DNA of 64,000 nt from Alphaproteobacteria bacterium PA2 (lineage in GTDB: Bacteria; Pseudomonadota; Alphaproteobacteria; Caulobacterales; Caulobacteraceae): NCBI GenBank assembly GCA_002256425.1, contig NKIZ01000001.1, positions 1,073,943-1,137,942 on the forward strand. The letters run 5' to 3'. The position numbers and the translations under genes are program-made. Below the pieces are notes generated by a model. That model ran no database searches, was not told the DNA's origin, and saw nothing but the letters and a program-made list of their open reading frames with translations. Every line of letters begins with the position of its first letter. The stretch's first letter is position 1. Below are positions 9,001 to 42,494 of the stretch, in pieces.

Positions 9001-9003
9001 GGG

Positions 9004-9615: not shown

Positions 9616-9651
9616 CTAGTCCTCCGGGGGCTGGAGGCAGCGGAGCCTTGA

Positions 9652-10254: not shown

Positions 10255-10380
10255 GGCCTTGCCTCAAAACGAAGTCGCCGCGCGAATGTCACGCGCGGCG
10301 GCGGACGACCCGTCAGGGCCGAAAGGTGGCGGTTGATACACAAAACCTGCGCCCATGGCAACGGGCGCAAGCCATGAGTC

Positions 10381-11427: not shown

Positions 11428-11571
11428 TGCGGCGGTTTTCCCGGTTGGTCTGGGTCGGCCAGGGCGGCAGACGGGCGCGGACGATTTGGTAACCCTAGAC
11501 CAGTTCGGTCAGGGACGGAATCCTTCGCAGACTGCGGTAAGTCCGTGTCGAAACTGCGGCCGGGAAGCCGT

Positions 11572-12507
11572 TCAGTCGAAGAGCTTGGAGACCGATTCCT
11601 CGTTGGCGATCCGGCGGATGGCTTCGCCGATCAGGGTGTCGCAGCTCACCTGGCGGATCTTGCTGCACTTGGCCACCAGATCGGACGCCTCGATGGAATC
11701 GGTGATGACAAGTTCCTTCAGCACCGAATTGGCCACTCGCTCATGGGCGGCGCCAGACAGGACGCCGTGGGTCACATAGGCCGAGACCTCGACGGCGCCG
11801 GCGTCCATCAGGGACTTGGCCGCGTTGCAGAGTGTGCCGGCCGAATCGACAATGTCATCGAACAGGATCAGTCGCCGGCCTTCCACGTCGCCGATGATGT
11901 TGGCGACCTCGCTCTTGCCCGGACCTGACCGGCGCTTGTCGACAATGGCCAGGTCGGCATTCAGGCGGCTGGCGACGGCCAGGGCGCGGACCACGCCGCC
12001 GACGTCGGGCGATACGATGAGCAGTTCGTGAGTGTTCTGGTAGTGGGCCTTGATATCGCCGGCCACCAGGGGCGTCGCCGCCAGGTTGTCTGTGGGGATA
12101 TCGAAGAAGCCCTGGATCTGCCCCGAGTGCAGATCCATGGTCAGGACCCGGTCGGCGCCCGCCCGGGTGATCAGATTGGCGACCAGTTTGGCGGAGATCG
12201 GCGTCCGGCCTCCGGTTTTCCGGTCCTGACGCGCATAGCCGAAATAGGGCATGACCGCCGTGATCCGCCGCGCCGAAGCCCGCTTGAGAGCGTCGATGCA
12301 GATCAGCAGCTCCATCAGGTTGTCATTGGCCGGGTAACTGGTGGACTGGATGACGAAGACGTCTTCCCCGCGGACATTCTCGTCAATGGTGACGAAGACC
12401 TCATTGTCGGCGAAGCGTTTTACCTGGGCCCGGGTCAGGGGCAGGTCCAGATGGGAGGCGACGGCCTCGGCGAGGGTGCGATTGGAGTTGCCAGCCAGCA
12501 GCTTCAT
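11572..12507 (-). CDS. prs: Ribose-phosphate pyrophosphokinase
   Basis: [32 protein letters not shown]. Confidence 0.97.
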
Positions 12508-12583
12508 GGAACCCTCGAGGTCTTGATTTCACCAGATGGCGCGGCTTGTAGCAGCCCCTTGGCGGGGGGCAAGTGCTGGCAGT

Positions 12584-13351
12584 TCAAACAAGCGTAATAG
12601 CTGAGAGCAGGCGGCCAAAATCGGGTTCGCCGCGACGAAAGGCCCGTCGGTTGGAGTAGAATTGCTGCTCATCGGTGCAAGTGTCGGCTCCGATCCAGGC
12701 GCAGGTTTCGACTCCGCTGCGCTGAAGACGGGACAGGACGAAGCCCGGCAGATCGAAATGCCGTTTATCGGCCGACTCACCAGCCATGAAGAAGGTGGAA
12801 TTGCCAGTGTCGGCTGCAATGAACCGGGCCTCGAACTCCAGGCCTACCTCGTAGGAGGTCTGGCTGATGCAGGGACCTACTATGGCGACGATGTTTCCAG
12901 CCCTGGCGCCCCTTGCGATCATGGCATCAACCGTGGCCTCGGCAATTCCCGCGAGCGCGCCTTTCCACCCCGCATGGGCGGCGGCGACGGTCCGCGACTC
13001 TGGATCAGCGAGCAGGATCGGCGCGCAGTCGGCCGCCAGGGCGCCGCAGATCACTCCGGTTGCGCCTGTCACGACGGCGTCGCCCTCAGGCCGTTCAAGG
13101 CCCCAGGGGGCGTCAGCAACAAGGGCTGTGGCTGAATGGATCTGGTAACAGTTTGAAAGGGCGTCTACCGGCAGATCGAAATGGGCGGCCGCCAGCCGGC
13201 GGTTCTCCGCCACGTCTTCGGGTCGGTCACCAGACCCCTGACCGACATTGAGACCTGCATAGATCCCTTGGGACACGCCGCCCTGACGGGTGAAGAAGGC
13301 ATGGCGAACGCCCGGCAGATCCAGCAGCGGCGATGTCAGAACCTGCAGCAT
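12584..13351 (-). CDS. pgeF: Peptidoglycan editing factor PgeF / YfiH laccase-domain purine nucleoside phosphorylase
   Basis: HAFFTRQGGVS, QIHS, ADCAPIL, HAGWKG, CT...FYSNRR. Start taken at the ATG at 13351, overlapping the upstream TGA. Confidence 0.9.
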   Translation of the reverse strand: MLQVLTSPLLDLPGVRHAFFTRQGGVSQGIYAGLNVGQGSGDRPEDVAENRRLAAAHFDLPVDALSNCYQIHSATALVADAPWGLERPEGDAVVTGATGVICGALAADCAPILLADPESRTVAAAHAGWKGALAGIAEATVDAMIARGARAGNIVAIVGPCISQTSYEVGLEFEARFIAADTGNSTFFMAGESADKRHFDLPGFVLSRLQRSGVETCAWIGADTCTDEQQFYSNRRAFRRGEPDFGRLLSAITLV

Positions 13352-14409
13352 CAGAAGGCCTCGAAAGCAGGCGGCGTCAGTCCCGGCTGGGCCAGACAGA
13401 CCACCTTGAAAAGGTCGCCCATTTCCTGTGGGGAGAGCAAGCGGTTCAATTGTCGCTCCAGGGTATCGAACCGCCCGGGCTGTGCCGCCGCCAGGGCTTC
13501 CGCCCGTTCCATGACGCCCATCTTCACCAGGAATGTCGCCTGGGTCAGGATCGGCCATTCCGGCAGGCCCTCGCTGGCTGCAGCGGCGACCACCGCCGGG
13601 AAGTCAGCATGAACCGTCAGGTCGGCGGCGCCCGGATCGGTCAGGGGGGAAACTTTTTCATGGGCCTTCAGGGCCTGAAGCGTGTCGCCAGGTCCCGGTT
13701 CTGAACGTCCATAGTCGATGAGCAGGGCCGCGCCTCCGTCTGCCTGGATCCGCTGGGCCAGGGTGCGGGCCAGCTCCTGCTGGGCGGCGGAGACTTCGAT
13801 CAGAACCCCAGCTGGAGCGTCCGGAAAGGCGCCCGCCGGCAGGGAGCCCATCAGGCCGAAGGTCAGGTTTCCGGCATCATCCAGGCCGACCCCTCGCTCC
13901 GACCAGCCTGCAGGCGTTCGGACAAACTGGCTGGCAGGCAGGCAATCCAGCAATTCATTGGCGACAACCAGCAGGGGCGCACCGGTGGGGACCTCGGAAA
14001 GTGAGGCGGCCCAACTGCCAGCGTCGTCCAGCTTTTCAGCCTGCAGGAATTTCAGCGGGGTCGATGTCTCCACCAGCCACAGATCCTGGGCGGCCAGGAA
14101 GCCTGCGTCCGTCCTGACCGTCCTCTGGATATCGACCATGAGGGTTCCGTCCCCTGGCCCCATTTCCACAAGCCGGAAGGGTGTGGGCCGGCCCAGGCGG
14201 CGCCAGGTCTCGATCAGCCAGACACCGATGATCTCGCCAAACATCTGGCTGACCAGAGGGGCCGTGATGAAATCGCCCTGGGCGCCAAGGGCCGGACGGG
14301 TGGCGTAGTACCCCTCCTGCGGATCATGCAGGCAGAGGTCCATGTATTGCGGGATGCTGAGCGGTCCTGTGGCTGCGATCAGGGCCTTGAGCCGGTCAAG
14401 CAGGGCCAT
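13351..14409 (-). CDS. SAM-dependent methyltransferase, MidA/NDUFAF7 family
   Basis: GYY....GDFITAP..S..FGE, LVEMGPGDGTL, ANELLDCLP, DYG, MG.LFKV; conserved lgt-midA-pgeF order. Confidence 0.9.
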   Translation of the reverse strand: MALLDRLKALIAATGPLSIPQYMDLCLHDPQEGYYATRPALGAQGDFITAPLVSQMFGEIIGVWLIETWRRLGRPTPFRLVEMGPGDGTLMVDIQRTVRTDAGFLAAQDLWLVETSTPLKFLQAEKLDDAGSWAASLSEVPTGAPLLVVANELLDCLPASQFVRTPAGWSERGVGLDDAGNLTFGLMGSLPAGAFPDAPAGVLIEVSAAQQELARTLAQRIQADGGAALLIDYGRSEPGPGDTLQALKAHEKVSPLTDPGAADLTVHADFPAVVAAAASEGLPEWPILTQATFLVKMGVMERAEALAAAQPGRFDTLERQLNRLLSPQEMGDLFKVVCLAQPGLTPPAFEAF

Positions 14410-15247
14410 GGGGCGTCGCCGGGATTTCTTCCTTCATGCCGCGCCAGATCAGCCAGGCGCCGCCAAGGATCATGGGCAGGCTGAGGATCATGCCCATGGT
14501 CATGCCGAGGGGGAAATCAGGCATGCCCTCGTCGGGTTCACGGACATTTTCCAGGGCTGCCCTGAAGAGACCGTATCCCAGGAAGAACAGACCGGCGATG
14601 ACGCCCCGCCGGCGCAGGAGCTTTGCCCCATGGGTTCCCCAGCGCAGGATCAGGAAGAGGAGCACCCCCTCAAGGGTCGCCTCATAGAGCTGGCTGGGAT
14701 GGCGGGTCAGGGGGCCGGCCCCTGGAAACACCATGGCCCAGGGAACATCGGTCACCCGACCCCAAAGTTCGGGCTTGATGAAGTTCGCCAGCCGCCCGAA
14801 CAGCAGACCGATCGGTGTGGCCGCGCAGATCAGGTCTCCGAGCTCATAGAGGTCGAGCTTGTTGCGCCAGGCAAACAGCAGGGTCGCGACGAGCACGCCA
14901 AGGGTTCCGCCATGGAAACTCATGCCGCCGTGCCAGACCATGAAAATTTCCAGGGGGTCGGCCAGAACGATCTGCGGTGTGTAGAACAGGACGTGGCCGA
15001 TCCGGCCTCCGAGGATGATGCCCAGGGTAATCCAGAGAATCAGGTCGTCCAGCTGGATCGGACTCAGCAGGGGCTTGCGGCCGCCCCAGAGCTTCTCGGA
15101 CTTCAACAGGTCGAGGATGTATCGCCAGCCCAGAAGTATACCCGAGATGTAGGCCAGGGCGTACCAGCGGATCGGCAGGGGGCCGATATTCACCAGGACA
15201 GGGTCAATCACCGGATAGGGCAGGGCCACCAAGAACTCTCCATCCAC
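14396..15247 (-). CDS. lgt: Prolipoprotein diacylglyceryl transferase
   Basis: IRWYAL, GGRIGHVLFY, GGMSFHGG, GRLANFI..ELWGR, HPSQLYEA. Confidence 0.96.
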   Translation of the reverse strand: MDGEFLVALPYPVIDPVLVNIGPLPIRWYALAYISGILLGWRYILDLLKSEKLWGGRKPLLSPIQLDDLILWITLGIILGGRIGHVLFYTPQIVLADPLEIFMVWHGGMSFHGGTLGVLVATLLFAWRNKLDLYELGDLICAATPIGLLFGRLANFIKPELWGRVTDVPWAMVFPGAGPLTRHPSQLYEATLEGVLLFLILRWGTHGAKLLRRRGVIAGLFFLGYGLFRAALENVREPDEGMPDFPLGMTMGMILSLPMILGGAWLIWRGMKEEIPATPHGPA

Positions 15248-15312
15248 ACGATGCTATGCGCTTTAGACGAGAACCCCCTCGCATTCATCCCCTGAAGGGC
15301 CATATTAGGGCC

Positions 15313-15591
15313 ATGCAGACACAGAACCCCTTTCTCGACGAAATGGCCAAGCTGACCAACGCAGCCATGGGCCTGGCTCAAAGCGCTGGCGAAGAGGCCA
15401 GGGCGGCCTTCCGCGCCCAGGCCGACCGCATGGCGGCCGAGCTGGATCTGATCCGGCGCGAGGACTTCGACGCCCTGAAGGCCGAGGTGGCGGCGCTTCG
15501 GGCCGAGGTGGCGGAATTGAAGGCTGCCCAGGCTCCCGCCAAGGCTCCGGCCAAGCCCGCTGCAAAGAAGTCGCCCAAGGCCGGCGCCTAA
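15313..15591 (+). CDS. Accessory factor UbiK / BMFP family coiled-coil protein
   Basis: LDLIRREDFDALK motif and C-terminal coiled coil; start at ATG 15313 (MQTQNPFLDE). Confidence 0.8.
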   Translation: MQTQNPFLDEMAKLTNAAMGLAQSAGEEARAAFRAQADRMAAELDLIRREDFDALKAEVAALRAEVAELKAAQAPAKAPAKPAAKKSPKAGA

Positions 15592-15727
15592 ACAGCGCCA
15601 AACACGCGATTGTGGCTCGCTTGCCGGAAGAAGCCGGTGACAGGGCGCGCGCGAAGCAGATTACTTTCACCATCGCACGGTGATTCGTGGGAAAGCCCAC
15701 GCCCGCTGCGAGGAGACCCACGGTCTT

Positions 15728-16231
15728 ATGGAAACGCCCCTTTCCGACGACGACATCATCCTGGCCCATGATCCCCTGGATGTGGTCGAGCATGTGCTTG
15801 CGGCAGAAAACCTCCAGTTCGACCGTACGGAGGAGGGCGACCTCGCCTTCACCCTTTCCGGCGACTGGAAGGATTTCGAGCTGTGGTTCGCCTGGCGGCC
15901 GGAAGCTGACTGCCTGCAGCTCTGCCTGTCTGTCGACCTTCAGGTGAAGCCGGATCAGCGGCCTGCGGCCTTTGAACTGGCCTCGACCATCAACCAGCGG
16001 GTCTGGCTGGGCCATTTCGAGGTCTGGGATGACGGCGAGATCGTCTTCCGCCACGCCATGGCCCTGACAGGCGGCGAGCGCCCAAGCCTGGCCCAGGCCG
16101 CGGCGATGATCGATGTGGCCATGGAGGCCGCCGACCGCTTCTACCCCGCCTTTGATTTCCTGACCCAGGGCGGCAAGACCCCGTCCCAGGCCATCGAGGC
16201 CTGTATGTTCGACACGGTCGGCGAAGCCTAG
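15728..16231 (+). CDS. YbjN-domain (type III chaperone-like) protein
   Basis: INQRVWLGHF, FRHAM, CMFDT.GEA C-terminus typical of alphaproteobacterial YbjN proteins upstream of proC. Confidence 0.75.
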   Translation: METPLSDDDIILAHDPLDVVEHVLAAENLQFDRTEEGDLAFTLSGDWKDFELWFAWRPEADCLQLCLSVDLQVKPDQRPAAFELASTINQRVWLGHFEVWDDGEIVFRHAMALTGGERPSLAQAAAMIDVAMEAADRFYPAFDFLTQGGKTPSQAIEACMFDTVGEA

Positions 16232-16249
16232 GGTCAGCCGGAGTTCCCG

Positions 16250-17050
16250 ATGTCCGCAACGCCCATTCTGATGCTCGGCGCAGGCCGGATGGGCGGCGCC
16301 CTGATCGAGGGCTGGCGCCGGAGCGGGGCCTTTGCGCCCTCCGACCTGATCATCCGCGATCCCCACCTGTCGGAAACCGCCCGCGCTGCCGGCGGGCTGG
16401 GGGCCCTGCTCAACCCCGGGCTGGAAGACCTCGCCAGGGCAAAAACCGTCCTGCTGGCCGTCAAGCCGCAGATCTGGCGCGAGACCGCTATCGAGGTGGG
16501 CGATCATCTGGCGCCCGACGCCATCATGATTTCAGTGGCCGCGGGGGTCAGGTCCTCGGACATCTCCTCAGCTTTCGGCGGGCGCCGGACCGCCCGGATC
16601 ATGCCGACCACAGCCGCCGCTATCGGCCAGGGCGTCGCCAGCATCTTTGCCGACGACCATGAAGCCCGGGCCAGAGCCCGCGCCCTGTTCGCCCCTGTGG
16701 GGACTGTGGTCGATCTGGACGACGAAGAGCTGCTCCACGCCGCAACCGGCGTCTCAGGGTCTGCTCCGGCCTATTTCTACGCCTTTGTGGAAGCTCTCGA
16801 GAAAGCAGGGGTTTCTGTGGGTCTGTCGCCGGAGGCGGCCCGGGATCTGGCGCGCGCCACCATGACCGGCGCGGCGGCCCTGCTGGCCCAGTCCGGGGAA
16901 AGCCCCGCCGATCTTCGCAGGCAGGTCACCTCGCCCAATGGCACAACCGAAGCTGCCCTCAGGATCCTGATGGGAGAGGGCGGACTTGAACCCTTGCTGC
17001 GGGACGCGGTTATCGCGGCGACCCACAGGTCTGTGGAACTGGGCGGCTAG
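16250..17050 (+). CDS. proC: Pyrroline-5-carboxylate reductase
   Basis: GAGRMGGA, LAVKPQ, RIMPTT, SGSAPAY, VTSPNGTT. Confidence 0.95.
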   Translation: MSATPILMLGAGRMGGALIEGWRRSGAFAPSDLIIRDPHLSETARAAGGLGALLNPGLEDLARAKTVLLAVKPQIWRETAIEVGDHLAPDAIMISVAAGVRSSDISSAFGGRRTARIMPTTAAAIGQGVASIFADDHEARARARALFAPVGTVVDLDDEELLHAATGVSGSAPAYFYAFVEALEKAGVSVGLSPEAARDLARATMTGAAALLAQSGESPADLRRQVTSPNGTTEAALRILMGEGGLEPLLRDAVIAATHRSVELGG

Positions 17051-17161
17051 AGCGCGTTCCCTTTAGACGGAACCGTCCAATGGGTAAAAGTGCGCTATAA
17101 TTCAAAGGTTTATGGCACGTTCGTTGCGATAACCGGTTCCCACTTATCGCCGCGGCTCTAG
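17047..17161. repeat. ~115-bp CTAG-bounded palindromic intergenic element (MITE-like, CIR/RIME-type), copy 1
   Basis: Starts CTAGAG, ends CTCTAG. Two nested-hairpin arms (GACGG-AA-CCGTC; GCGATAA...TTATCGC) flank an AT-rich core. Shares GATAACCGGTTCCCACTT with the copy at 50.5 kb. Its ends include the stop codons of both flanking convergent genes. Confidence 0.8.
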
Positions 17162-17583
17162 TCCGCCGACGACCAGATCTGCCCCTGACAGACCACTGAA
17201 ATGCAGCCTTCAACCTTCAGGGTTCCCTTCGGCGTCAGGGCGATCTTCGACACATAGGTCTTGCCCACCTTGGGATCATAGATGGTTCCACCGGTCCACT
17301 TGCCGTCGGCCGATGGTGAGAAGTTACGGAGCAGCTGCAGGCCGACAATGGGCCTGCTGCGAAGGCTGGGGTCTGGGTTCTTGCTGTCCACTGGTGGCAG
17401 GCCGGTCGCCTTGTCGATCTTGTCGCTGATCCAGACAACGGTCCCACACAGCTTCTGACCGCAGGGGGCGATGCGCACCTTGGCCGACCGGTCCTGAACA
17501 TACCAGACGCCTTCGGGAGGGCTGGCGGCGACAGCCGGAAATGCAGCGACAAGGGTTGCAGCAAGGACAAGTTTCTTCAGCAT
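17158..17583 (-). CDS. DUF2147 family secreted protein
   Basis: Signal peptide, EGVW, V.IAPCG..LCG, WTGGTIYDP..GKTY, C.GQIWS. Confidence 0.85.
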   Translation of the reverse strand: MLKKLVLAATLVAAFPAVAASPPEGVWYVQDRSAKVRIAPCGQKLCGTVVWISDKIDKATGLPPVDSKNPDPSLRSRPIVGLQLLRNFSPSADGKWTGGTIYDPKVGKTYVSKIALTPKGTLKVEGCISVVCQGQIWSSAD

Positions 17584-17659
17584 TGCAGGTTCCGGCAGGT
17601 GTTGATCTCGGGGAGTGGAACCCCGCAGATGCCAAGGCCTCATGGCGATTTTGCGACAG

Positions 17660-19027
17660 TCAGAGGCGGGCTTCCACCGACCCTGGCAGGCGCACGGTCG
17701 CCTTCAGGCCGCCCAGGGCGGACCTGGCCAGCAGGATGTCGCCCCCATGGGCCCGGGCCACATCCCTGGCAATGGCCAGGCCAAGGCCCACGCCCTTTTC
17801 GTTCTGGTTCCTGGCCTCATCCAGGCGGTTGAAGGCCTTGAAGGCGTCCTCATAGCGTTCGGGGGCTATGCCGGGGCCATTGTCTTCCACCACGATCTGC
17901 ACCCAGCCCTCCGGCAGGGGCGCGGCGGCGATATGCACCCGGTCCGCATGGGCGGCGGCGTTCATGATCAGGTTGGACAGGGCCCGCTTCAGGGCGTTGG
18001 GGCGGACCTGGACGGTCAGGGCCTCGTCCACGGTGACCCTGGCTTCTACCCCGGCCCGGCGAGCGCCTTGCTCCACATCATCGATCAACTGACCAAGGTT
18101 CACCGACTCGACGATCTCGCCGCCCTCGCCGCGGGCGAAGGCCAGATACTCGTCGATCATGTGCTCCATCTCGGCGAGGTCCCGCTTCATCTCAACGGTG
18201 CGGCTGCTGGGTTCGGCCAGGGCCAGCTCCAGTTTCAGGCGAGTCAAGGGCGTGCGCAGGTCGTGGCTGACCGAGGCCAGCAGGGATGTGCGCTGCTCGA
18301 TGTGGCGCTGGATCCGGGACTTCATGGCCAGGAAGGCCCGGGCCGCCTGCCGCACCTCCCTTGCGCCGTGAGGCTTGAAAGCCGCTGAGTCCACGCCCCT
18401 GCCGAAGTCGTCTGCGGCGTCGGCCAGCCTCTCGATCGCCCGGACCTGGTTGCGGATGAACAGTATGGAGATGGCGGTCAGCAGAAGGGTGGCGATGGTC
18501 ATCCAGAGAACGAAGATGTGGCCCTGGGTCGCCACGGCCCTTTCCCGCGGCGCCAGGACTCGCATGACGCCGTTCGGAGTCTGGACGCGGATGTCCACAT
18601 AGGCTGGATAGCGGGTCGTATCGAACCAGAAGGGCGCATCCAGACGAGCGGCCAGGGCCTTGTCCACCACGCGGTCCACCACGCCGAAGGGGTTATGGCG
18701 GCGGCGTTCAGGCAGGGTGCGGCCAGGCTGCAGGGCGATGGAAAGGCTCATGGACCGTTCGGCCCGATCGGTCAGCCGGGCCAGGGCCGCCGGGCTGGGG
18801 TCGTCATTATAGCTCTCCACCGCCCAGGCGATGTCGCCGGCCAGGCCTTCGGACAGGCGGCTGGTCACGGTCTGCCAGTGGGCGTCGAAGAACACCCAGG
18901 TGACCGCGATCTGCATGATCGCCACTGGCAGTATGATGATCAGCAGGCTGCGGCCGAACAGGGTTGTGGGCAGGCTGCGCTTGATCAGCCTTTGCCAGCG
19001 CGCCGATGAAAAGACCCTCAGGCGCAT
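17660..19027 (-). CDS. EnvZ-like sensor histidine kinase
   Basis: Two TM segments, HAMP domain, VSHDLRTPL H-box, N-box, DNGPG, GVGLGLAI. Confidence 0.93.
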   Translation of the reverse strand: MRLRVFSSARWQRLIKRSLPTTLFGRSLLIIILPVAIMQIAVTWVFFDAHWQTVTSRLSEGLAGDIAWAVESYNDDPSPAALARLTDRAERSMSLSIALQPGRTLPERRRHNPFGVVDRVVDKALAARLDAPFWFDTTRYPAYVDIRVQTPNGVMRVLAPRERAVATQGHIFVLWMTIATLLLTAISILFIRNQVRAIERLADAADDFGRGVDSAAFKPHGAREVRQAARAFLAMKSRIQRHIEQRTSLLASVSHDLRTPLTRLKLELALAEPSSRTVEMKRDLAEMEHMIDEYLAFARGEGGEIVESVNLGQLIDDVEQGARRAGVEARVTVDEALTVQVRPNALKRALSNLIMNAAAHADRVHIAAAPLPEGWVQIVVEDNGPGIAPERYEDAFKAFNRLDEARNQNEKGVGLGLAIARDVARAHGGDILLARSALGGLKATVRLPGSVEARL

Positions 19028-34634: not shown

Positions 34635-36050
34635 ATGAGCCTTTCTCCCGACTACCGCCCCGACCCCCGCCTGCCGCGCCTGGGACCCGACTTCGCCGAT
34701 CCGGTTGAAGCTGCGGACTTTCCGGAGACAAGGCTGCGCTATCGCAATCAGAGGGCGGCGGCGACCGTAGGGCTGGATACCCTGAGCGATGAGGAATGGC
34801 GGGACCACTTCGGGCGGTTCAAGCCCCTGCCGGGCAATCTCGAAGCGCCTTTGGCCCAGCGTTATCACGGCCATCAGTTCCGTGTTTACAACCCGGATCT
34901 GGGCGACGGCCGGGGCTTCACCTTCGCCCAGATGCGCGAAGTCGGATCGGACCGCCTGCTGGACCTGGGGACCAAGGGTTCAGGGCCCACGCCCTGGTCG
35001 CGCCAGGGCGACGGACGACTGACCCTAAAGGGCGGGGTCCGCGAGGTTCTGGCCACCGCCATGCTGGAGGCCGTGGGGGTAAACACCAGCAAGACCTTTT
35101 CCCTGATCGAAACCGGCGAAGACCTTCAGCGCAATGACGAGCCGAGCCCGACCCGTTCAGCTGTGATGGTCCGGCTCAGCCATGGGCATGTCCGGTTCGG
35201 CACCTTCCAGCGTCAGGCCTTCCTGGAGCGGCCCGACCAGATCACCCGCCTGGTCGATTATGTGATCGAGACCTACTACCCCGAACTGGAGGCTGCTGCG
35301 GACCGTCGGGCCGCGCTTCTGGAGGCCGTGATTGTGCGGACCGCGGCCATGTGCACGGGCTGGATGGCGGCCGGGTTCGTTCATGGCGTGCTCAATACCG
35401 ACAACATGAACATTACTGGCGAGAGCTTCGACTACGGCCCCTACCGCTTCCTGCCGCGCAATGACCCCAACTTTGTCGCCGCCTATTTCGACCAGAACGG
35501 TCTCTACAGTTTTGGACGGCAGCCCGAGGCGGTGTTCTGGAACCTGCAGCAGCTGGCGGGGTGCCTGGCCTTGGGCGAGGCGGACCAGGAGCCCTTGGTG
35601 GCGGCCCTCAACACCTTTGGCGGCGTCTACCGTAACGCTCTTGCTGCTTCCATGCTCCGTCGCCTGGGGATAGCGCCTGAAAGTCCGGAGGCTGATTTCG
35701 CCCTCGCGGGATCGGCCTTCCGGGCCCTGTCGGTGGGCGGCGATGTCCTGAGGTGGGAGCCCTTCTTCTTCGACTGGTTCTGTGGCGACACCGGTCGCGC
35801 CATGGCCAGTCCCCGGCGGGAGGTCTATGAGGCGCCGGAGTTCGCAGACTTCCGCGCCCTGATCCATGGCCGGACTGCCGACAGACCGGAGCGACTCGAC
35901 GCTCCCTATTTTTCGAACCCCGACCCGCAGGAACTGATTGTCGAAGAGATCGAGGCGATCTGGGCCGATATTGCGGCACGGGACGACTGGTCGGCGTTTG
36001 ATCAGAAGCTTGTGGATCTGGAGGCCACCCGCACGGCCTGGGCGCTCTAG
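34635..36050 (+). CDS. selO: SelO/YdiU family protein adenylyltransferase
   Basis: YHGHQF, LGDGRG, KGSGPTPWSRQGDGR, GFVHGVLNTDNM, FDYGP. Confidence 0.93.
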   Translation: MSLSPDYRPDPRLPRLGPDFADPVEAADFPETRLRYRNQRAAATVGLDTLSDEEWRDHFGRFKPLPGNLEAPLAQRYHGHQFRVYNPDLGDGRGFTFAQMREVGSDRLLDLGTKGSGPTPWSRQGDGRLTLKGGVREVLATAMLEAVGVNTSKTFSLIETGEDLQRNDEPSPTRSAVMVRLSHGHVRFGTFQRQAFLERPDQITRLVDYVIETYYPELEAAADRRAALLEAVIVRTAAMCTGWMAAGFVHGVLNTDNMNITGESFDYGPYRFLPRNDPNFVAAYFDQNGLYSFGRQPEAVFWNLQQLAGCLALGEADQEPLVAALNTFGGVYRNALAASMLRRLGIAPESPEADFALAGSAFRALSVGGDVLRWEPFFFDWFCGDTGRAMASPRREVYEAPEFADFRALIHGRTADRPERLDAPYFSNPDPQELIVEEIEAIWADIAARDDWSAFDQKLVDLEATRTAWAL

Positions 36051-36937
36051 GCCTTTGGTCGGGCCGACCATTGGGCCAGAACGACCCCGCACAGGGCGAT
36101 GGCCCCGCCCAGGGCCTGCATGGGTCCGAAGACTTCACCGAATATGCTCCAGCCCAGCAGGGCCGCAACGACGGGCTGCACAAGAACGGTGACCGAGGCC
36201 GTGGCGGCGGGCAGGCGCCCCAGTGCCCAGGCGATGGAGCCCTGACCCGCCACGTGCATGACCCCAAGACCGATGCAGGCCGCCCAGCCGGTGAGGCTCG
36301 CAGGGATCAGTTGCTCATGCAGGCCCAGCCCCGCCAGGAGAAGAATCGGAGCTCCGGTCAGGCTTGACCAGAACATCAGCCTGGAAGCCCCCATGGTCCG
36401 CCGCGCAGAGCTGACCCCAAGGAAGTAGAGGGCGTACCAGAAGGCGGTCGCGGTGGAGAGGATGTCGCCCAGAAGGGGTGACTTGCCGGCGAACCCAGCG
36501 TCCCGCGCCATGGCCATGATCCAGGCGCCCGCCACTGCAAGGGCCACAGCCACCAGGAAGAGGGGGCTGGGCTTCTGTTTCAGAACCACCCAGGCCACGG
36601 CGGTGACCACAACCGGTGTCAGGTTGGACAGGACAGTCGCCTTGGCGACAGACGTGAAGGCGATGCCATAGTGCCAGAAGCCCAGGTCCAGGGCGAAGGC
36701 CAGGCCGGTGAGCAAGGCGATGGGGGCAAAGCCCGAAATGGCGCCTTCAGCCCGGCGGGTCAGGAGCGCCAGCAAGGGCAGGGCGAAGGTCAGTCGCCAG
36801 AAGCCAGCCATGACGGGTCCGACATCCGAAAGGCGGACCAGGATCGGGCCAACGCCTATGACGCAGGCGCCCAATAGCAGAACCAGCAGGGCCCGGCCTC
36901 GATCTGACTCGTGGGATTGCACAACGGTCTCAGTCAA
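36047..36937 (-). CDS. DMT/EamA family transporter
   Basis: About ten TM segments with a duplicated EamA pattern. Confidence 0.88.
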   Translation of the reverse strand: MTETVVQSHESDRGRALLVLLLGACVIGVGPILVRLSDVGPVMAGFWRLTFALPLLALLTRRAEGAISGFAPIALLTGLAFALDLGFWHYGIAFTSVAKATVLSNLTPVVVTAVAWVVLKQKPSPLFLVAVALAVAGAWIMAMARDAGFAGKSPLLGDILSTATAFWYALYFLGVSSARRTMGASRLMFWSSLTGAPILLLAGLGLHEQLIPASLTGWAACIGLGVMHVAGQGSIAWALGRLPAATASVTVLVQPVVAALLGWSIFGEVFGPMQALGGAIALCGVVLAQWSARPKA

Positions 36938-37781
36938 ACCCGAGGTCCTTTCGAAGGGTTCCGGGTTTCATCCCCGCAGTCCGGAGACTTTGCAGGGTCT
37001 CGGCGTTGTGGCGTTTTGCCAGACGCACGCCGTCGGCGCCACGCAAGAGTGCGTGGTGCCTGTAGACCGGGGTGGGCAATCCAAGCAGGGCCTGGAGCAG
37101 GCGCTGGATATGGGTAGCCTCGAACAGGTCTTCACCCCGGATGATGTGGGTAACCCCCTGCAGGGCGTCATCCACCGTCACGGCCAGATGGTAGGCGACC
37201 CCCACATCCTTCCGCGCGAGGATGATGTCGCCCGCCAGATCGGGCAGGGCGGTGATGAGTCCATGCTGACCTTCCGGGCCGGCGCCTTCCTCTTCAAAGG
37301 TCAGGTCTGTGAAGCTGCCGAGTTCTGATCTGGCGGCCTCGAGGGAGAGCCGCCAGGCAAAGGGTTCTCCCCGGGCGAGGCGTTCGGACTCTTCGGTTGG
37401 CGATAGGGCTGCGCCCCGAAATGCGGGGGCTGTCCCATGGGGCGCGCTGGCCATTTCCTGCGCCACTTCCCGACGGGTCCTGAAACATCGATAGGCCAGC
37501 CCCCTGTCGCAGAGCCTCTCCAGGGCGGCGTGATAATCGGCCATATGCTCGGACTGGCGGCGGACCGGCTCTTCCCAGCCCAAGCCCAGCCAGGACAGGT
37601 CTTCCAGAAGATCAGCTTCAAAGGCTGGACGACAGCGGGTGGTGTCGATGTCTTCAATTCGGAGAATGAATCGCCCGTCCGCCTCCCGGGCGGCGGACCA
37701 GGCTTTCAGGGCTGAATACGCATGCCCGCGATGCAACAGTCCCGTCGGGGAGGGTGCAAAGCGGGTTGTAAATCCGGGCAC
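36930..37781 (-). CDS. gluQ: Glutamyl-Q tRNA(Asp) synthetase
   Basis: RFAPSPTG, HRGH variant of HIGH, LRIEDID, YHLAVTVDD, LAKR; lacks the anticodon-binding domain. Confidence 0.9.
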   Translation of the reverse strand: MPGFTTRFAPSPTGLLHRGHAYSALKAWSAAREADGRFILRIEDIDTTRCRPAFEADLLEDLSWLGLGWEEPVRRQSEHMADYHAALERLCDRGLAYRCFRTRREVAQEMASAPHGTAPAFRGAALSPTEESERLARGEPFAWRLSLEAARSELGSFTDLTFEEEGAGPEGQHGLITALPDLAGDIILARKDVGVAYHLAVTVDDALQGVTHIIRGEDLFEATHIQRLLQALLGLPTPVYRHHALLRGADGVRLAKRHNAETLQSLRTAGMKPGTLRKDLGFD

Positions 37782-37789
37782 CTTGACGG

Positions 37790-38419
37790 CTATTTCGGGG
37801 TCAGGTCCGCAAACACCCGCATGTGGGAGAAGATCCCCCGGAAGAAGGCCTCTTCGCCGCCGACCGCGTCCTTCAGGTGTTCAAACTGTTTGAATGAGGC
37901 CATTTCCGCCAGGCCGTGGGCCGCGCACCAGGCTGCACTGGTGGCCAGTTCCAGACCGATTTCGTCACTGGGGTCAGCGCCAGCTTCGACCAGGGTGTCC
38001 CGCACCTGGCAGTAGGCGCTGTCATCCTGCATGCGGGCATGTTCGGGCAGGTCGTCCTTGTCCCGGGAGCCGTCATACATGACGCGGTACAGGCTTGGAT
38101 TGTCCCGCGCGAAGCAGACATAGGCGACGCCCAGGGCCACCATGCGGTCACCAAGGGATGAAGCTTCCGCCCGGGCCTTGGTCATGGCCTGGTTCAGCAT
38201 TTCCCAGCCTTCATGGGCTACGGCGTCCAGCAGCTCGCCCTTGTCCTTGAAATGATGATAGGGCGCCGCAGGGCTGACGCCGGCTTCCCGGGCGACAGCG
38301 CGCAGGGAGAGGGCGGAGGGACCGTCGCGTTCCAGCAGGCGACGGGCCGCATCAATCAGGGCGCGGCGGAGATCGCCGTGGTGATAGGGCCGGGCTTCGG
38401 CTGCGACAGTTTCTCTCAT
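37790..38419 (-). CDS. TetR/AcrR family regulator with WHG-type C-terminal domain
   Basis: YHHGDLRRALIDAA, LSLRAVAREAGVSPAAPYHHF, AW.AAHG. Alternative GTG start at 38428. Confidence 0.92.
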   Translation of the reverse strand: MRETVAAEARPYHHGDLRRALIDAARRLLERDGPSALSLRAVAREAGVSPAAPYHHFKDKGELLDAVAHEGWEMLNQAMTKARAEASSLGDRMVALGVAYVCFARDNPSLYRVMYDGSRDKDDLPEHARMQDDSAYCQVRDTLVEAGADPSDEIGLELATSAAWCAAHGLAEMASFKQFEHLKDAVGGEEAFFRGIFSHMRVFADLTPK

Positions 38420-38458
38420 GGCTGGCACCGTAATTCTATATCGCTGCCCCGTAAAGGC

Positions 38459-38503
38459 ATCTTGACAATGCTTAGATATCGGCTATCTTAGCATTGTTCA
38501 AAT
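38459..38503. promoter_or_regulatory. Paired 19-bp palindromic operators over overlapping opposite-strand sigma70-type promoters (module 1)
   Basis: ATCTTGACAATGCTTAGAT (38459-77) and ATCTTAGCATTGTTCAAAT (38485-503). Plus strand TTGACA-N16-TATCTT; minus strand TTGAAC-N17-TATCTA. Confidence 0.75.
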
Positions 38504-38550
38504 AACAGATCTCCCCACTCCCCTGGGGCTCAAACTGAAAGGTGTGTGTC

Positions 38551-38652
38551 ATGTCTCTCGCCAACTTCGAGCGTCTCGTCGACCGGATCGTTCCGGCCTT
38601 CCTTCTGGCGCTGGGCCTCGGCGTCGCGGCCGCAATGGCCGGCGCTGTCTAG
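38551..38652 (+). CDS. 33-aa single-TM hydrophobic peptide P1 (not in ORF track)
   Basis: MSLANFERLVDRIVPAFLLALGLGVAAAMAGAV; GAAAGG SD 8 nt upstream; host-like codons; own promoter and terminator. Confidence 0.75.
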   Translation: MSLANFERLVDRIVPAFLLALGLGVAAAMAGAV

Positions 38653-38676
38653 GCTCCTGAAAACTCCGCAAGGAAC

Positions 38677-38703
38677 GGGGCCCCGAAAGGGGCCCTTTTA
38701 TTG
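38677..38703 (+). terminator. Intrinsic terminator after P1
   Basis: GGGCCCC-GAAA-GGGGCCC followed by TTTTATT. Confidence 0.85.
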
Positions 38704-38758
38704 TCCACGAAATCGACCTCAGCCCATACAAAAATGCATGTCGTACATTGTAAAATGT

Positions 38759-38803
38759 AACTGTACACCGTTCAGATTGGCGCTATCCTGCAATTGTCCA
38801 GAC
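38759..38803 (+). promoter_or_regulatory. Paired 19-bp operator-like sites and promoter (module 2)
   Basis: AACTGTACACCGTTCAGAT (38759-77) and ATCCTGCAATTGTCCAGAC (38785-803), exactly 300 bp after the module 1 sites, with the same 7-nt spacer ending GCT. Confidence 0.65.
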
Positions 38804-38849
38804 GGACAAAGGGTTCGGATCCCCCGGCCCAACCCACAGGAGACTTCAC

Positions 38850-38963
38850 ATGACCAACCGTTCCATCCCCGCCTTCGCCCGCGCCGCCGATCTGCTCGTC
38901 GCCATTCTGTTCGTGTCCATGAGCCTGGCCATCGCCGGCGCCTCTACGATCATTGGCGCCTGA
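38850..38963 (+). CDS. 37-aa single-TM hydrophobic peptide P2 (not in ORF track)
   Basis: MTNRSIPAFARAADLLVAILFVSMSLAIAGASTIIGA; AGGAG SD 7 nt upstream; strongly GC3-biased codons. Confidence 0.75.
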   Translation: MTNRSIPAFARAADLLVAILFVSMSLAIAGASTIIGA

Positions 38964-38975
38964 TGCCGGAAGATT

Positions 38976-39021
38976 GTCCTCGCTTGCCCTATTGAGCGGC
39001 GGTCGCCAGGCAAGCGAGGAC
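38976..39021. terminator. 13-bp stem hairpin after P2 (possible terminator or 3' stabiliser)
   Basis: GTCCTCGCTTGCC / GGCAAGCGAGGAC with a 20-nt loop; no U tract. Confidence 0.45.
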
Positions 39022-39203
39022 CTGATCTGCCAGGAGGTGAAATTTTGACAGACCGTCATTCAAGCGCCAAAGAATCAGGCCTATCCTGAACCAGGCTCAA
39101 CCGGACACCGACTGTCCGGGACGCATATTGGACCTCGGGAGACCCGTCTTCAGGCACAGGCTTTCGTTCAACAGCGCGCCTACGCGCACCGGGAGGCCCA
39201 GCC

Positions 39204-39764
39204 ATGGAGGTGCTTAGTCATCCGCCAACTGGGTGGCCGGCCCTTGTGCTGAACGCCGACTTCAGGCCGTTGAGTTATTATCCCCTGTCGCTCTGGCCCT
39301 GGCAGGATGTGATCAAGGCGGTGTTCCTTGATCGCGTTGACGTGGTCTCGACCTACGATCAGACCATCCGGTCACCGTCCTTTGAAATCCAGCTCCCCAG
39401 CGTTGTGGCGCTGAAGAGCTATGTGGCCCAGGACCGGGCTCCGGTCTTCACCCGATTCAACCTGTTTCTCCGGGACTCGTTCTGCTGCCAGTACTGCCGC
39501 AGGGCCGAGGACCTGACCTTTGACCATGTGACCCCCCGGTCACTCGGTGGCCGGACGACCTGGGAGAACATCGTCACCGCCTGCGCCCGGTGCAATTTCA
39601 TCAAGGGCGGCAAGACGCCTGCCCAGGCCAACATGCATCCCTTCGTCAGGCCACGTCAGCCCACCACCTATGAGCTGCAGGAGCGTGGACGGAAGTTCCC
39701 GCCCAACCACCTGCACCGCAGTTGGATGGACTTTCTCTATTGGGACACTGAGCTGGAGGCCTGA
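39204..39764 (+). CDS. HNH endonuclease (McrA/HNH_5-like, ALVLNA family)
   Basis: ALVLNAD N-terminus; CQYC...DHVTPRSLGG...NIVTAC..CN..KG; GGGAGG SD. Confidence 0.9.
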   Translation: MEVLSHPPTGWPALVLNADFRPLSYYPLSLWPWQDVIKAVFLDRVDVVSTYDQTIRSPSFEIQLPSVVALKSYVAQDRAPVFTRFNLFLRDSFCCQYCRRAEDLTFDHVTPRSLGGRTTWENIVTACARCNFIKGGKTPAQANMHPFVRPRQPTTYELQERGRKFPPNHLHRSWMDFLYWDTELEA

Positions 39765-40768: not shown

Positions 40769-41419
40769 CTATGGCATCGCAGGCCGGGCCTCGCGCCACA
40801 TGGCGAAGAGGGGAGGGGCGTCAGGTCGGGCCCTGTATTCCTCCACCACTTCAAATCCGTGGCGTTCGTACAGGGGAACATTGGCGGGGTTCGAGCTTTC
40901 GAGGAAGGCGTGACGGCCCTGGGCGTCGACCTCTCTCAGGCCCGCGGCCAGCAGGCGCGAGCCGACCCCATAGCCCTGGGCCTCGGGCCGGACACCCAGA
41001 AACCAGAGGTAGGCGTGTGGTCGGTCCTTTGGATGATGGGCCTCCATGGCGTTGCGCATGGCGATCATCCTCGGCAGGCGGGCGAGGCCTGTGAGGGCTG
41101 CGATCCTGGGCAGGCTGCGAAGGGATTCCAGCAAGGGGGTAGGGCCCAGAGCGTCAGATGGCAGCCAGATCGCTGCGGCGCCCCCTGTGGCAGGGCGCTG
41201 CACCACGCCGTCCGGCAGGGCTGATCCCAGCAGGAGCCCATAGAACAGCCGGAGCCTGGCGGTGTCATGCCCAGCATCTGGCCTGAGGAACCAGAGAAAC
41301 TGCGGGTCCTGGGCGAAGGCTGCGGAGAGGTCGTCGGCGACCTGGCCAACCTGGTCGCGGCTAGCGCGAACCGGCGCTTCTGCGGCAAGTCGCAGGGCGA
41401 CGATCTCCGCCTCGGTCAC
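40769..41419 (-). CDS. GNAT family N-acetyltransferase
   Basis: YLWFLGVRPEAQGYGVG, LESSNPANVPLYERHGF. GTG start taken at the GTGA overlap with coq7. Confidence 0.85.
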   Translation of the reverse strand: MTEAEIVALRLAAEAPVRASRDQVGQVADDLSAAFAQDPQFLWFLRPDAGHDTARLRLFYGLLLGSALPDGVVQRPATGGAAAIWLPSDALGPTPLLESLRSLPRIAALTGLARLPRMIAMRNAMEAHHPKDRPHAYLWFLGVRPEAQGYGVGSRLLAAGLREVDAQGRHAFLESSNPANVPLYERHGFEVVEEYRARPDAPPLFAMWREARPAMP

Positions 41420-41979
41420 AGCTTTTCGCTGATCTTGATGGCGGTCAGGCAACCGGCCTTGATGACGGCCGCCAGCACCGGATAGCCGGGGGTCGACGTC
41501 GCCCCCTCGGCCATGGCGTGATCACGATGGGACAGTTCCTCATCGCGGAACTGACTGAGCTCGGCCGCGAGTTCGGGATCGGAACCCGAGATTTCGGCGA
41601 TCTGTCCGGCATAGTGCTTTTCGATCACGCTCTCGACAGCGACGGTGCAGGCGTGGGCGGCCTTTTCGCCCATCAGGGCCGTGCCCGCGCCCAGGGCATA
41701 GCCAGCCAGTCGCCAAAGGGGCGCCATGAGGGTGGGCCGGACCTGATGGGAGTTCAGAAGGGCGTCGAAGCGGGCCAGGTGCACCGCTTCATGGCCCTCC
41801 ATCTCGGTAAGCTGCTCGACAATGCGCGCCCGACCGGGCGCTGCCCCCAGCACGGCGCGTTGGCCGCGATAGATGTGGACGGCGGCCAGTTCGCCCGCGT
41901 GGTCAACTCGAAGCATCTCTGCCAGCCGGGCCTTGGCGGCGCCCCTTCCGGGGCGGGCTGGAATGGGCTTTTCAGTCAT
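41416..41979 (-). CDS. coq7: Demethoxyubiquinone hydroxylase, Coq7 family
   Basis: RVDHAGE..A..IYRGQ, E..H, CT.AVE..I..HY, FRDEE..H di-iron ligands. Confidence 0.92.
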   Translation of the reverse strand: MTEKPIPARPGRGAAKARLAEMLRVDHAGELAAVHIYRGQRAVLGAAPGRARIVEQLTEMEGHEAVHLARFDALLNSHQVRPTLMAPLWRLAGYALGAGTALMGEKAAHACTVAVESVIEKHYAGQIAEISGSDPELAAELSQFRDEELSHRDHAMAEGATSTPGYPVLAAVIKAGCLTAIKISEKL

Positions 41980-42494
41980 GCAAACTGCCGTCGGCTGGTG
42001 GCCGCCATCAAGCTCAGAATGGTGAGCTTCAGGGAAATCAGGACGTTGTATCCGGCCATGGAAATGCCGAAGAGCCGCCAGGCAGCTTCATCGCAGGACG
42101 GAGGCTTGATCTTCGCCGTGCCCTCGGCGATGGCCGCCAGGGCGCCCAGGTCGACCTTGCCGCCTGACGAGGCGCAGGTTGTCGGCCCTGGCCACCACTT
42201 CCATTCAGCGCCCGAATGGTAGATGGCGATGCCCATCCCAATGGCGAATGCGAGGGCCAGGGCGATATTGAAGGCCCAGCGGAAGCGTTTCATGCCTGGC
42301 CGGGAGGTCAGCACCATGCCGACCAGGGCTATGGCGCCCGCCGCCCAGTAAACCGTCCTCTGATGCAGGCAGAGCGTGCAGGGCGCATATCCGCCAAAGG
42401 TCTCAAAAGCATGGGCTATGGCCAGCATGAGGGCGGACGAAAACAGCGCCCACCCGAGCCAGCGATCAAGGAAATAGCCGATGAGTTTGGACAT
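41976..42494 (-). CDS. dsbB: Disulfide bond formation protein B
   Basis: PCTLCLHQR, YHSGAE..WW.GP..C, second Cys pair (SCD), TM segments. Confidence 0.88.
   Translation of the reverse strand: MSKLIGYFLDRWLGWALFSSALMLAIAHAFETFGGYAPCTLCLHQRTVYWAAGAIALVGMVLTSRPGMKRFRWAFNIALALAFAIGMGIAIYHSGAEWKWWPGPTTCASSGGKVDLGALAAIAEGTAKIKPPSCDEAAWRLFGISMAGYNVLISLKLTILSLMAATSRRQFA

Follow-up and report, generated by a model that had tools for sequence, protein, structure and literature searches.

What occupies the 775-bp stretch, nominally 'intergenic', between a tetR-family regulator gene and an HNH endonuclease gene in the genome of Alphaproteobacteria bacterium PA2, a member of the Caulobacteraceae? The window in which this question was addressed is a 64,000-nt stretch of contig NKIZ01000001.1, and an initial annotation made from its sequence had proposed that the gap holds a tandem pair of diverged ~300-bp modules (~38459-38700 and ~38760-39021), each composed of paired operators, a promoter, a small open reading frame (ORF) and a hairpin, and serving as two separately promoted micro-genes under one regulator. 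That interpretation appears to have been largely right: the modules are best read as tandem cassettes of ancient origin that carry separate signals for control and termination and would be controlled by the adjacent TetR protein, the second operator being half-lost in this genome. The reading favoured here, to which a probability of about 0.6 is assigned, is that of a tetR gene divergent from tandem, self-contained micro-gene cassettes, with TetR acting on their operators, a ligand releasing it, and each cassette giving rise to its own monocistronic mRNA of ~200 nt.

In such a locus, each ~300-bp cassette would comprise a sigma-70-type promoter, a 23-bp operator (GyTyAGAT-N7-ATCTaAGC) placed over the -35/-10 spacer and the -10 element, a structured leader of ~55 nt with a Shine-Dalgarno (SD) sequence, an ORF of 29-38 codons encoding a membrane peptide, and a 3' hairpin or terminator. 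The monocistronic mRNA of each unit would be short and hairpin-protected. A TetR dimer bound to the operators would block RNA polymerase until a ligand, probably hydrophobic, frees the regulator, whereupon all cassettes would fire together.

The first cassette, designated type A, contains the following elements:

38462-38489, plus strand: promoter P1, with -35 TTGACA (38462-38467), a 16-nt spacer and -10 TATCTT (38484-38489); predicted transcription start site (TSS) at ~38496.
38470-38492, no strand assigned: predicted operator 1, GCTTAGAT-ATCGGCT-ATCTTAGC, lying between and over the -35 and -10 of P1.
38513-38528, plus strand: leader hairpin 1, stem CCCCA/UGGGG and loop CUCCCC (38518-38523), seen in the fold.
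38538-38553, plus strand: translation initiation region 1, AAAGGTGTGTGTCATG, from alignments of type-A cassettes.
38551-38652, plus strand: small ORF 1 (type A), 33 residues, MSLANFERLVDRIVPAFLLALGLGVAAAMAGAV; matched by the family hidden Markov model (HMM) at E 6e-17; predicted single-helix membrane peptide.
38677-38700, plus strand: intrinsic terminator 1, GGGGCCCC-GAAA-GGGGCCCT (38677-38696) followed by TTTT, from a terminator scan.

The second cassette, designated type B, is built as follows:

38726-38739, no strand assigned: palindrome ATACA-AAAA-TGCAT, located ~65 nt before the predicted second TSS; the consensus in the family is ATGCA-N4-TGCAT.
38763-38790, plus strand: promoter-like P2, with -35-like TGTACA (38763-38768), a 16-nt spacer and -10 TATCCT (38785-38790); predicted TSS at ~38797.
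38771-38793, no strand assigned: predicted, degenerate operator 2, GTTCAGAT-TGGCGCT-ATCCTGCA, left half perfect, right half with four mismatches.
38795-38831, plus strand: leader 2, with a 5'-terminal hairpin TTGTCC-AGAC-GGACAA (38795-38810) and a GC hairpin (38812-38831) with loop AUCCC, read from the sequence.
38850-38963, plus strand: small ORF 2 (type B, divergent), 37 residues, MTNRSIPAFARAADLLVAILFVSMSLAIAGASTIIGA; SD AGGAG at 38839-38843.
38976-39021, plus strand: 3' hairpin 2, a perfect 13-bp stem (38976-38988 and 39009-39021) with a 20-nt loop and no T tail.

Within the window, the repeat consists of geometry only. The ORF starts (38551 and 38850) and the 3' hairpins (38677 and 38976) are each offset by 299 nt, as had been stated, whereas the operators are not offset by exactly 300 bp: the AGAT cores (38474-38477 and 38775-38778) and the -10 hexamers (38484-38489 and 38785-38790) lie 301 nt apart, and of the two operator-bearing strings originally quoted, the first is found at 38459-38503 but the second at 38760-38804, one nucleotide beyond its annotated place. 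Self-comparison bears out the low similarity of the modules, which are 31-32 % identical at offsets of 299 and 300, within the 21-34 % range of neighbouring offsets. Their global alignment is no better than that of shuffled sequences, self-alignment stays at background, and a repeat search between them recovers only short direct repeats at chance level. With identity at background, duplication is not demonstrable from the window alone; that the resemblance exceeds chance follows from both peptides matching each other's orthologues and merging into one HMM family, and from the operator-promoter-ORF geometry recurring as the same cassette layout in ~80 related genomes.

The two cassettes differ in the quality of their signals. 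P1 is the only sigma-70-like match in the region (10 of 12 consensus positions in a promoter scan), and alignment shows it to be conserved in first-copy cassettes as ATCTTGACg...TATCTtAGC. It is overlapped by an inverted repeat whose 14-nt arms (38465-38478 and 38484-38497) are 93 % complementary, operator 1 is the only match within three mismatches in the 64-kb window, and terminator 1 folds at -21.5 kcal/mol (z = -3.05). P2 falls below the threshold of a simple promoter scan, and occupies the place taken in type-B cassettes by a conserved block, ATCT(g/a)(t/g)ACA...TATCTaAGC. The fold of leader 2, at the position of which GTCCAGATGGAC is conserved in type-B cassettes, is not unusually stable (z = +0.55), while 3' hairpin 2 folds at -33.3 kcal/mol (z = -4.24).

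The modules were counted in the syntenic gluQ-TetR-HNH regions of 80 loci from Phenylobacterium and Caulobacter genomes, retrieved by similarity to the TetR protein. When jackhmmer was seeded with ORF1 over all stop-to-stop frames of the compared intergenic regions, one peptide family was recovered, of which ORF1 (E 6e-17) and ORF2 (E 1e-6, and 4e-7 in a later search) are both members. All members lie between tetR and the HNH gene on the strand opposite tetR, and the loci carry one to five copies: one in 24 loci, two in 48, three in seven (including a double-counted match in L054) and five in one. Successive copies start a median of 324 nt apart (interquartile range 311-341), and the intergenic lengths cluster near 460, 770 and 1050 bp; together, these values identify the ~300-bp cassette as the true unit of the locus.

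Two cassette types can be distinguished by their upstream sequences. Type A, found in the first position, is preceded by cgTAAAgat-ATCTTGACgccGyTcAGAT-N7-TATCTTAGCrttGTTCAAATAA, followed by the hairpin with the CUCCCC loop and the nucleotide-invariant AAAGGTGTGTGTCATG. Type B, found in the last position, carries ATGCA-N4-TGCAT, GTAAA, ATCT(g/a)(t/g)ACA-ttGyTyAGAT-N7-cTATCTaAGCATcGTCCAGATGGAC, a GC hairpin and an AAGGAA Shine-Dalgarno sequence. The ATGCA-N4-TGCAT palindrome recurs upstream of most type-B cassettes (L002-L079), is absent from type A, and may be the site of a second regulator, perhaps an activator that offsets the weak -35. Architectures of the A-B kind predominate (43 loci), followed by A-A-B (4), A-B-B (2), A-A (2) and A-B-B-B-B (1), plus single copies, among which those of Caulobacter mix A and B features and were called 'B' by the simple typing rule. 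Across the promoter and operator, the consensus sequences of the two types coincide at 38 of 52 defined positions, and the cassettes are therefore homologous at the DNA level, although copies within one genome have drifted apart. The A and B cassettes of the window are best regarded as ancient paralogues older than the Phenylobacterium radiation. More recent duplications are also evident, copies 1 and 2 of L042 being nearly identical and L058 carrying three similar short copies ~295 nt apart.

The operator is conserved in both types. The pattern GYTYAGAT-N6-8-ATCTWAGC, with at most two mismatches over its 16 specified positions, occurs in 64 of 77 type-A and 57 of 66 type-B cassettes and in none of 715 shuffled sequences, and the median distance from the start of the motif to the ATG is 82 nt in type A and 86 nt in type B. 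Its left half is situated in the -35/-10 spacer and its right half overlaps the -10. As promoter function imposes no sequence on the spacer, conservation of the left half points to a bound protein, and this is the principal argument for an operator. In a scan of the whole collection, the -35 and operator pattern marks one locus per genome; its matches lie on contigs labelled Caulobacteraceae, save for two contigs from metagenome-assembled genomes (MAGs; Novosphingobium and Alsobacter labels) that hold the same tetR locus. Two other candidates for the conserved motifs, a sigma-54 promoter and the alphaproteobacterial LexA box (GTTC-N7-GTTC), were rejected on inspection, neither their spacing nor their sequence fitting. 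A spacing variant, AGAT-N7-TATCT with TTGAC, gave 27 sites, mostly irrelevant or variant; those in L081, L085, L087 and L100 lie on contigs labelled Deinococcales or Myxococcus/Myxococcaceae, which may be mis-binned Caulobacteraceae contigs or chance matches.

The family consensus of the peptides is M-x3-L-x2-FERxFDR-(transmembrane segment)-AGATAxxGA, in which the Asp is invariant, and the ORFs span ~29-38 codons. In four independent length classes, codon-position entropy falls in the order 3>1>2; ORF lengths vary by whole codons, and the ATG, SD and stop are conserved. By these measures the small ORFs evolve as coding sequence, and, with types A and B each conserved across Phenylobacterium, the old duplication kept by selection that the initial annotation had envisaged is borne out. 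Kyte-Doolittle means over 19 residues reach 2.15 and 2.23 in the two window peptides, above the usual transmembrane threshold, and hydropathy exceeds 1.6 over the C-terminal two-thirds of ORF1. AlphaFold2, given a 52-sequence alignment, models ORF1 as one continuous helix (residues 3-32, predicted local distance difference test score 95), and the peptides are thus predicted to insert as single-pass inner-membrane helices. With an invariant Asp-Arg at the membrane interface and a C-terminal face of small residues, the peptides seem suited to pairing with a specific partner helix rather than to a generic membrane activity; as to function, the best guess is that they serve a membrane complex as small accessory or modulator subunits.

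Neither peptide is matched in Pfam or NCBIfam at E <= 1, nor by a described small-protein family, and no further family member is encoded elsewhere in the window. A profile search of 5.8 billion proteins, with an alignment headed by the 69-residue stop-to-stop translation as query, returned 539 relatives; among the matches listed, these are 34-64 residues long, lack Pfam domains and are unnamed or 'hypothetical', save for a few labels assigned automatically by JGI. Look-ups of the exact sequences agreed with this, and the exact ORF2 protein is present in public assemblies.

Direct evidence of transcription comes mainly from a relative. For the window organism, the only RNA run from the same sample contained no reads on the region, and in a wetland metatranscriptome a relative of 90-95 % identity is represented by low-depth contigs over nearly the whole region, in which read-through, DNA carry-over and separate transcripts are inseparable. 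The most informative data are raw 2026 RNA-seq runs of C. vibrioides DSM 9893, whose locus (L234) is arranged as follows:

L234, minus strand: single-copy orthologue, with TTGACG at 2437-2432, TATCTA at 2415-2410 and a 36-codon ORF at 2327-2217.

Depth there is ~2 at and upstream of position 2401, which covers the promoter and the tetR-proximal intergenic DNA, rises to 150-245 at 2391-2395, where fragment ends are piled exactly at 2395, and reaches 400-1700 over the ORF. This edge may be a processed end, or the library may have lost ~8 nt at 5' ends. The tetR gene of the same locus offers a gauge, since its mRNA begins at the tetR ATG (2495) whereas the read ends (2502-2504) fall 7-9 nt further in; by this shortfall, the true TSS of the peptide gene is plausibly ~8 nt upstream of the observed edge, where the promoter predicts it. 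On either account, transcription of the type-A cassette of C. vibrioides begins at the predicted promoter, with no read-through from upstream. In both C. crescentus and C. vibrioides the tetR mRNA itself seems to lack a leader, with the operon start coinciding with the start of the coding sequence and reads ending just inside the ORF (L234 2495-2504); in the operon table of C. crescentus NA1000, the CCNA_02287-02288 operon likewise begins at the coding-sequence start (PMC4117421 supplement).

Ribosome profiling (Ribo-seq; two runs, sampled at 12-19 %) contributed three and five reads on the correct strand, all of them on the start-codon region (2301-2345). Three and one antisense reads over the -10 and 5' end of the peptide gene (L234 2381-2420, plus strand) were also present in the two Ribo-seq libraries, where RNA-seq depth is ~2; they are too few to interpret. 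In the two-cassette P. haematophilum locus (L019), short low-depth contigs from 11 RNA-labelled runs fall into groups corresponding to ORF1, ORF2 and the HNH leader. One contig of the ORF2 unit (2363-2550) has its upstream end ~6 nt upstream of the predicted TSS, and no short contig crosses the cassette-2 promoter (2551-2629), which is crossed in one full-coverage run, maybe DNA. The proposal of separately promoted micro-genes accordingly holds in that each cassette has its own promoter-like and operator-like elements and 3' hairpin and that the type-A start is seen in C. vibrioides, but independent type-B transcription is backed by conservation and, only weakly, by these contigs. The third group (L019 2100-2321, approximately 39022-39203 of the window) follows the cassette-2 hairpin over the ~160 nt upstream of the HNH gene, and may represent either an extended leader of that gene or a further small RNA (sRNA).

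In C. crescentus NA1000 the gene order is CCNA_02285 (GreB/Rnk-like), CCNA_02286 ('hypothetical protein'), CCNA_02287 (TetR) and CCNA_02288 (gluQ-like). CCNA_02286 lies within the interval that holds the single-copy 36-codon orthologue, and its annotated frame is a candidate for the conserved ORF. Unlike the window, this locus has a single cassette, with GreB/Rnk-like and AlkA-like genes between it and the HNH gene. Co-elution with GsrN, a stress sRNA, has been recorded for the NA1000 segment 2435450-2435500 (sense, log2 fold 3.26), which was assigned to CCNA_02286 (PMC5869019, Table 1). This segment corresponds approximately to L234 2191-2241 and comprises the ORF 3' end and the upstream end of a stretch of abundant RNA. 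That stretch (L234 2044-2200, approximately NA1000 2435303-2435459) runs from the small-ORF stop to the GreB/Rnk-like gene, has an RNA depth of 9,000-18,000, compared with 50-250 for tetR, ends sharply at 2044 and bears no ribosome footprints; strain differences at 2178-2195 disturb mapping. It could represent an abundant sRNA derived from the 3' untranslated region or a stable decay product.

The transcripts also carry conserved structure. A hairpin of 5-8 bp occupies a fixed place in 48 distinct type-A leaders, with the loop CUCCCC in 37 of them, and compensatory changes are seen in its stem when pairs are counted by loop-anchored alignment: the closing pair is G-C in 32, A-U in 7 and C-G in 9 leaders, and the third pair is C-G in 33 and U-A in 12. 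RNAalifold, run on a MAFFT alignment in which the hairpin columns were misaligned, found no pairs, and z-scores from single-sequence folding of the leaders were not significant. Many type-B leaders have an AUCCCC loop (window 38820-38826). A C-rich loop is unusual in an mRNA leader, and no obvious pairing with the cassette's own SD was found. The initiation region AAAGGTGTGTGTCATG is nearly nucleotide-invariant in type-A cassettes across genera and far better conserved than the codons after it; this hints at a factor that binds there, or at a structural role in addition to the Shine-Dalgarno function. Downstream, a stem of at least 7 bp follows 94 % of type-A ORFs, as tetraloop terminators typically ~25 nt past the stop, and 98 % of type-B ORFs, as GC stems of 8-13 bp with large loops, mostly without a T tail (loops of at least 10 nt in 65 %, a T tail in only 8 %).

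Several observations weigh against the favoured reading, and most bear on whether TetR is the protein that binds the palindrome. Adjacency and the palindrome are the basis on which TetR binding and ligand control are proposed. The right half-site doubles as the -10, so that part of its conservation is promoter conservation; the type-A left half-site has been lost in L031, L037, L039/L040, L067 and L072, which keep tetR; and in C. vibrioides the peptide gene is expressed about 10-fold or more above tetR in ordinary RNA-seq, which implies that repression is at most partial in those conditions. In the five groups of loci just named, the -35 and the -10/right half-site are kept while the left half-site is replaced, as if cassette A had evaded its control, or altered it, in some branches of the genus. 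The palindrome may then be the site of another regulator or an extended promoter element, with tetR controlling, for example, itself and gluQ, and the second conserved palindrome, ATGCA-N4-TGCAT, implies that other factors probably act here. This account is nevertheless unlikely, given that the linkage of tetR to the peptide cassettes is strict in all loci examined, that conservation of the left half in the spacer is explained only by a DNA-binding protein, and that TetR-family regulators typically act on a divergent target whose promoter is overlapped by a palindrome, as in TetR/tetO, QacR/IR1 and the AmtR box CTAT-N6-ATAG. The second cassette poses a problem of its own. The claim of paired operators stands for module 1, but in module 2 only the left half is perfect, the right half-site departing from the family half-site at four of eight positions. 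The type-B operator has three mismatches in the close relative L001 and is intact in L002 and L003 (GCTTAGAT-N7-ATCTTAGC), and in the window lineage it appears to be decaying. With its right half-site lost, shared TetR control of module 2 here is doubtful: the cassette may be repressed weakly or not at all, and perhaps depends on ATGCA-N4-TGCAT. The single shared regulator of the initial annotation is thus plausible from adjacency and the palindrome, but uncertain for module 2. A single operon, in which only P1 works, cassette 2 is transcribed by read-through, and P2 and operator 2 are relics of a decaying duplication, would account for the poor -35 (TGTACA) and the degenerate operator, for wetland contigs that span the inter-cassette region 38729-38911 at low depth, and for the promoterless extra copies found elsewhere (L015 copy 3, L037 copy 3 and L058 copy 4). 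It is slightly less probable still, as a strong canonical terminator follows ORF1 and is conserved after type-A ORFs, and the type-B promoter and operator block is far better conserved genus-wide than the flanking intergenic DNA. The separate groups of P. haematophilum contigs, which leave the cassette-2 promoter uncovered save for the run that is possibly DNA, also speak against read-through; some of these contigs start a few nt upstream of the predicted TSS and, being of low depth, may be contaminating DNA, and as such they lend weak support to separate cassette-2 transcription.

The transcript data of C. vibrioides are likewise imperfect, since the libraries are unstranded, the ribosome-footprint counts are very low and the 5' edge at 2395 lies 15 nt, rather than ~7 nt, past the -10, at the foot of the leader hairpin. 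It may be asked whether the transcripts act mainly as RNAs, sRNAs or dual-function molecules in which the ORFs are incidental or secondary. The conserved leader and 3' hairpins, the CUCCCC loop and the nucleotide-invariant initiation region would suit such a role, as would the region 3' of the C. vibrioides ORF, at 10-20 times the ORF depth and free of footprints, and the 50-nt segment co-eluting with GsrN, which includes the ORF 3' end and sequence past the stop (PMC5869019). An RNA function as the main one is nonetheless improbable, because amino acids are conserved while the DNA diverges, the two cassettes being at background DNA identity; because codon-position entropy, the retention of ATG, SD and stop, and length changes in whole codons are those of a coding sequence; and because ribosomes are found on the start codon. 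Rfam 15 gave no match either, the best window scores being 12.7-18.8 bits (E 0.5-4.7) against thresholds of 34-80, nor was there a match at the C. vibrioides locus. Least probable is that the cassettes are type I toxin-antitoxin-like repeats of the Escherichia coli LDR/SIB kind, encoding hydrophobic membrane toxins held post-transcriptionally. They do resemble the ldr and ibs families in being ~300-bp tandem repeats with their own promoter and a hydrophobic ORF of ~35 codons, and four antisense reads from the Ribo-seq libraries cover the C. vibrioides promoter and 5' end. However, no conserved antisense promoter or hairpin was noticed in the type-A and type-B alignments, the mRNA is abundant in ordinary cultures, the cassettes are inherited vertically at one chromosomal position beside a dedicated protein repressor throughout the family, and the conserved charged motif with its invariant Asp fits a specific interaction better than generic membrane damage.

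A TetR repressor acting on divergent micro-gene cassettes therefore continues to be preferred. It could be extended to an 'expandable regulon' of the Caulobacteraceae, in which one to five duplicated cassettes set peptide dosage and diversity under one ligand-sensing TetR, type B is additionally wired through ATGCA-N4-TGCAT, and the mRNAs double as abundant regulatory RNAs. The regulatory-RNA part draws on the CUCCCC loop, the co-elution with GsrN and the abundant 3' fragment in C. crescentus. In this full form the proposal is speculative, and is considered rather doubtful.

The genes that frame the cassettes were identified from the ORF listing and Pfam:

36930-37781, minus strand: gluQ-like tRNA-synthetase paralogue.
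37790-38428, minus strand: tetR-family regulator gene, with a TetR_N helix-turn-helix (HTH) and a TetR_C_33/WHG-type ligand domain.
39204-39764, plus strand: HNH_5 endonuclease gene.

The regulator matches TetR_N (PF00440, E 2.2e-15) and PF13305 (E 1.2e-11), corresponding to an N-terminal HTH and an all-helical C-terminal ligand domain. Its relatives in the PDB are all TetR-family proteins, the nearest of these structures, 3on2, being without an assigned function. The orthologues in the 80 loci are 65-96 % identical and always have gluQ next to them; the highest value is shared with the TetR of one MAG labelled P. zucineum (96 %), and the window itself derives from a Phenylobacterium. The start of tetR is ambiguous between GTG 38428 and ATG 38419; many relatives align from residue 4 onward only, and the second of these codons could be the genuine start. 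A tetR promoter with a convincing -35/-10 pair was not recognizable in the window, and autoregulation could not be shown; the conserved CGTAAA beside the operator (TTTACG on the tetR strand) has no good -10 at the normal distance from a -35. The order gluQ-tetR-...-HNH is kept in all 80 loci, and both database relatives sampled for context (n = 2) have a SelO-EamA-gluQ-TetR-peptide(s)-HNH neighbourhood. Over a wider span (36047-36937, 34635-36050 and 41416-42494), synteny with NA1000 CCNA_02279-02288 takes in SelO, EamA, gluQ, tetR ... Coq7-like and DsbB genes. In one metagenomic relative (L306), a phage-type integrase directly follows the HNH gene.

Small membrane proteins are poorly charted, and most known examples were found singly in E. 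coli. The present locus offers unannotated peptides across a whole bacterial family, together with a dedicated sensor-regulator, mutable cis-elements and natural variation in copy number. Its C. crescentus orthologue, in the CCNA_02286/02287 interval, is tractable, highly expressed and linked to GsrN by one pull-down. Identification of the TetR ligand and of the membrane partner of the peptides would give a conserved 'hypothetical' locus a function, and the locus could show how a regulon grows through duplication of whole promoter-operator-gene cassettes. Neither the locus nor the peptide family nor the regulator was the subject of any paper found in literature searches, the sole mention of CCNA_02286 being as the RNA that co-elutes with GsrN; the view that no locus of this form had been described is in keeping with this result.

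Among known systems, the nearest in regulatory logic are TetR-tetA, QacR-qacA, AcrR-acrAB and AmtR. As in these, a TetR_N regulator is encoded beside and divergently from its presumed target, with a palindrome over the target promoter, and the half-sites of AmtR boxes are 6-7 nt apart, as they are here. In contrast to the classical pairs, the target is neither a transporter nor an enzyme but an array of 30-37-codon genes, the ligand domain belongs to the uncharacterized TetR_C_33 type, and the operator and promoter are duplicated with each micro-gene, so that the regulon grows by cassette duplication.

With regard to the products, AcrZ, MgtS, KdpF, CydX and MgrB are bacterial small membrane proteins that modulate larger complexes. 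Like them, the peptides described here have fewer than 50 residues, one predicted transmembrane helix, small-residue motifs (AGATAxxGA) and dedicated transcriptional control, whereas they are unrelated in sequence to described families, occur as tandem paralogues and were found in this study only in Caulobacteraceae loci. In build, the cassettes recall the E. coli LDR (ldrA-D/rdlA-D) and SIB (ibs/sib) elements, direct repeats of a few hundred bp in which a hydrophobic ORF of ~19-35 codons is flanked by its promoter and terminator, and which encode toxins under cis-antisense RNA control. The same autonomous-unit direct-repeat design is seen here, but with a protein operator beside a TetR gene, no evident antisense partner and copies that are far more diverged. 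The combination of a TetR repressor with a divergent target is thus ordinary; what is new is a micro-gene array of variable copy number that encodes an undescribed family of membrane peptides.

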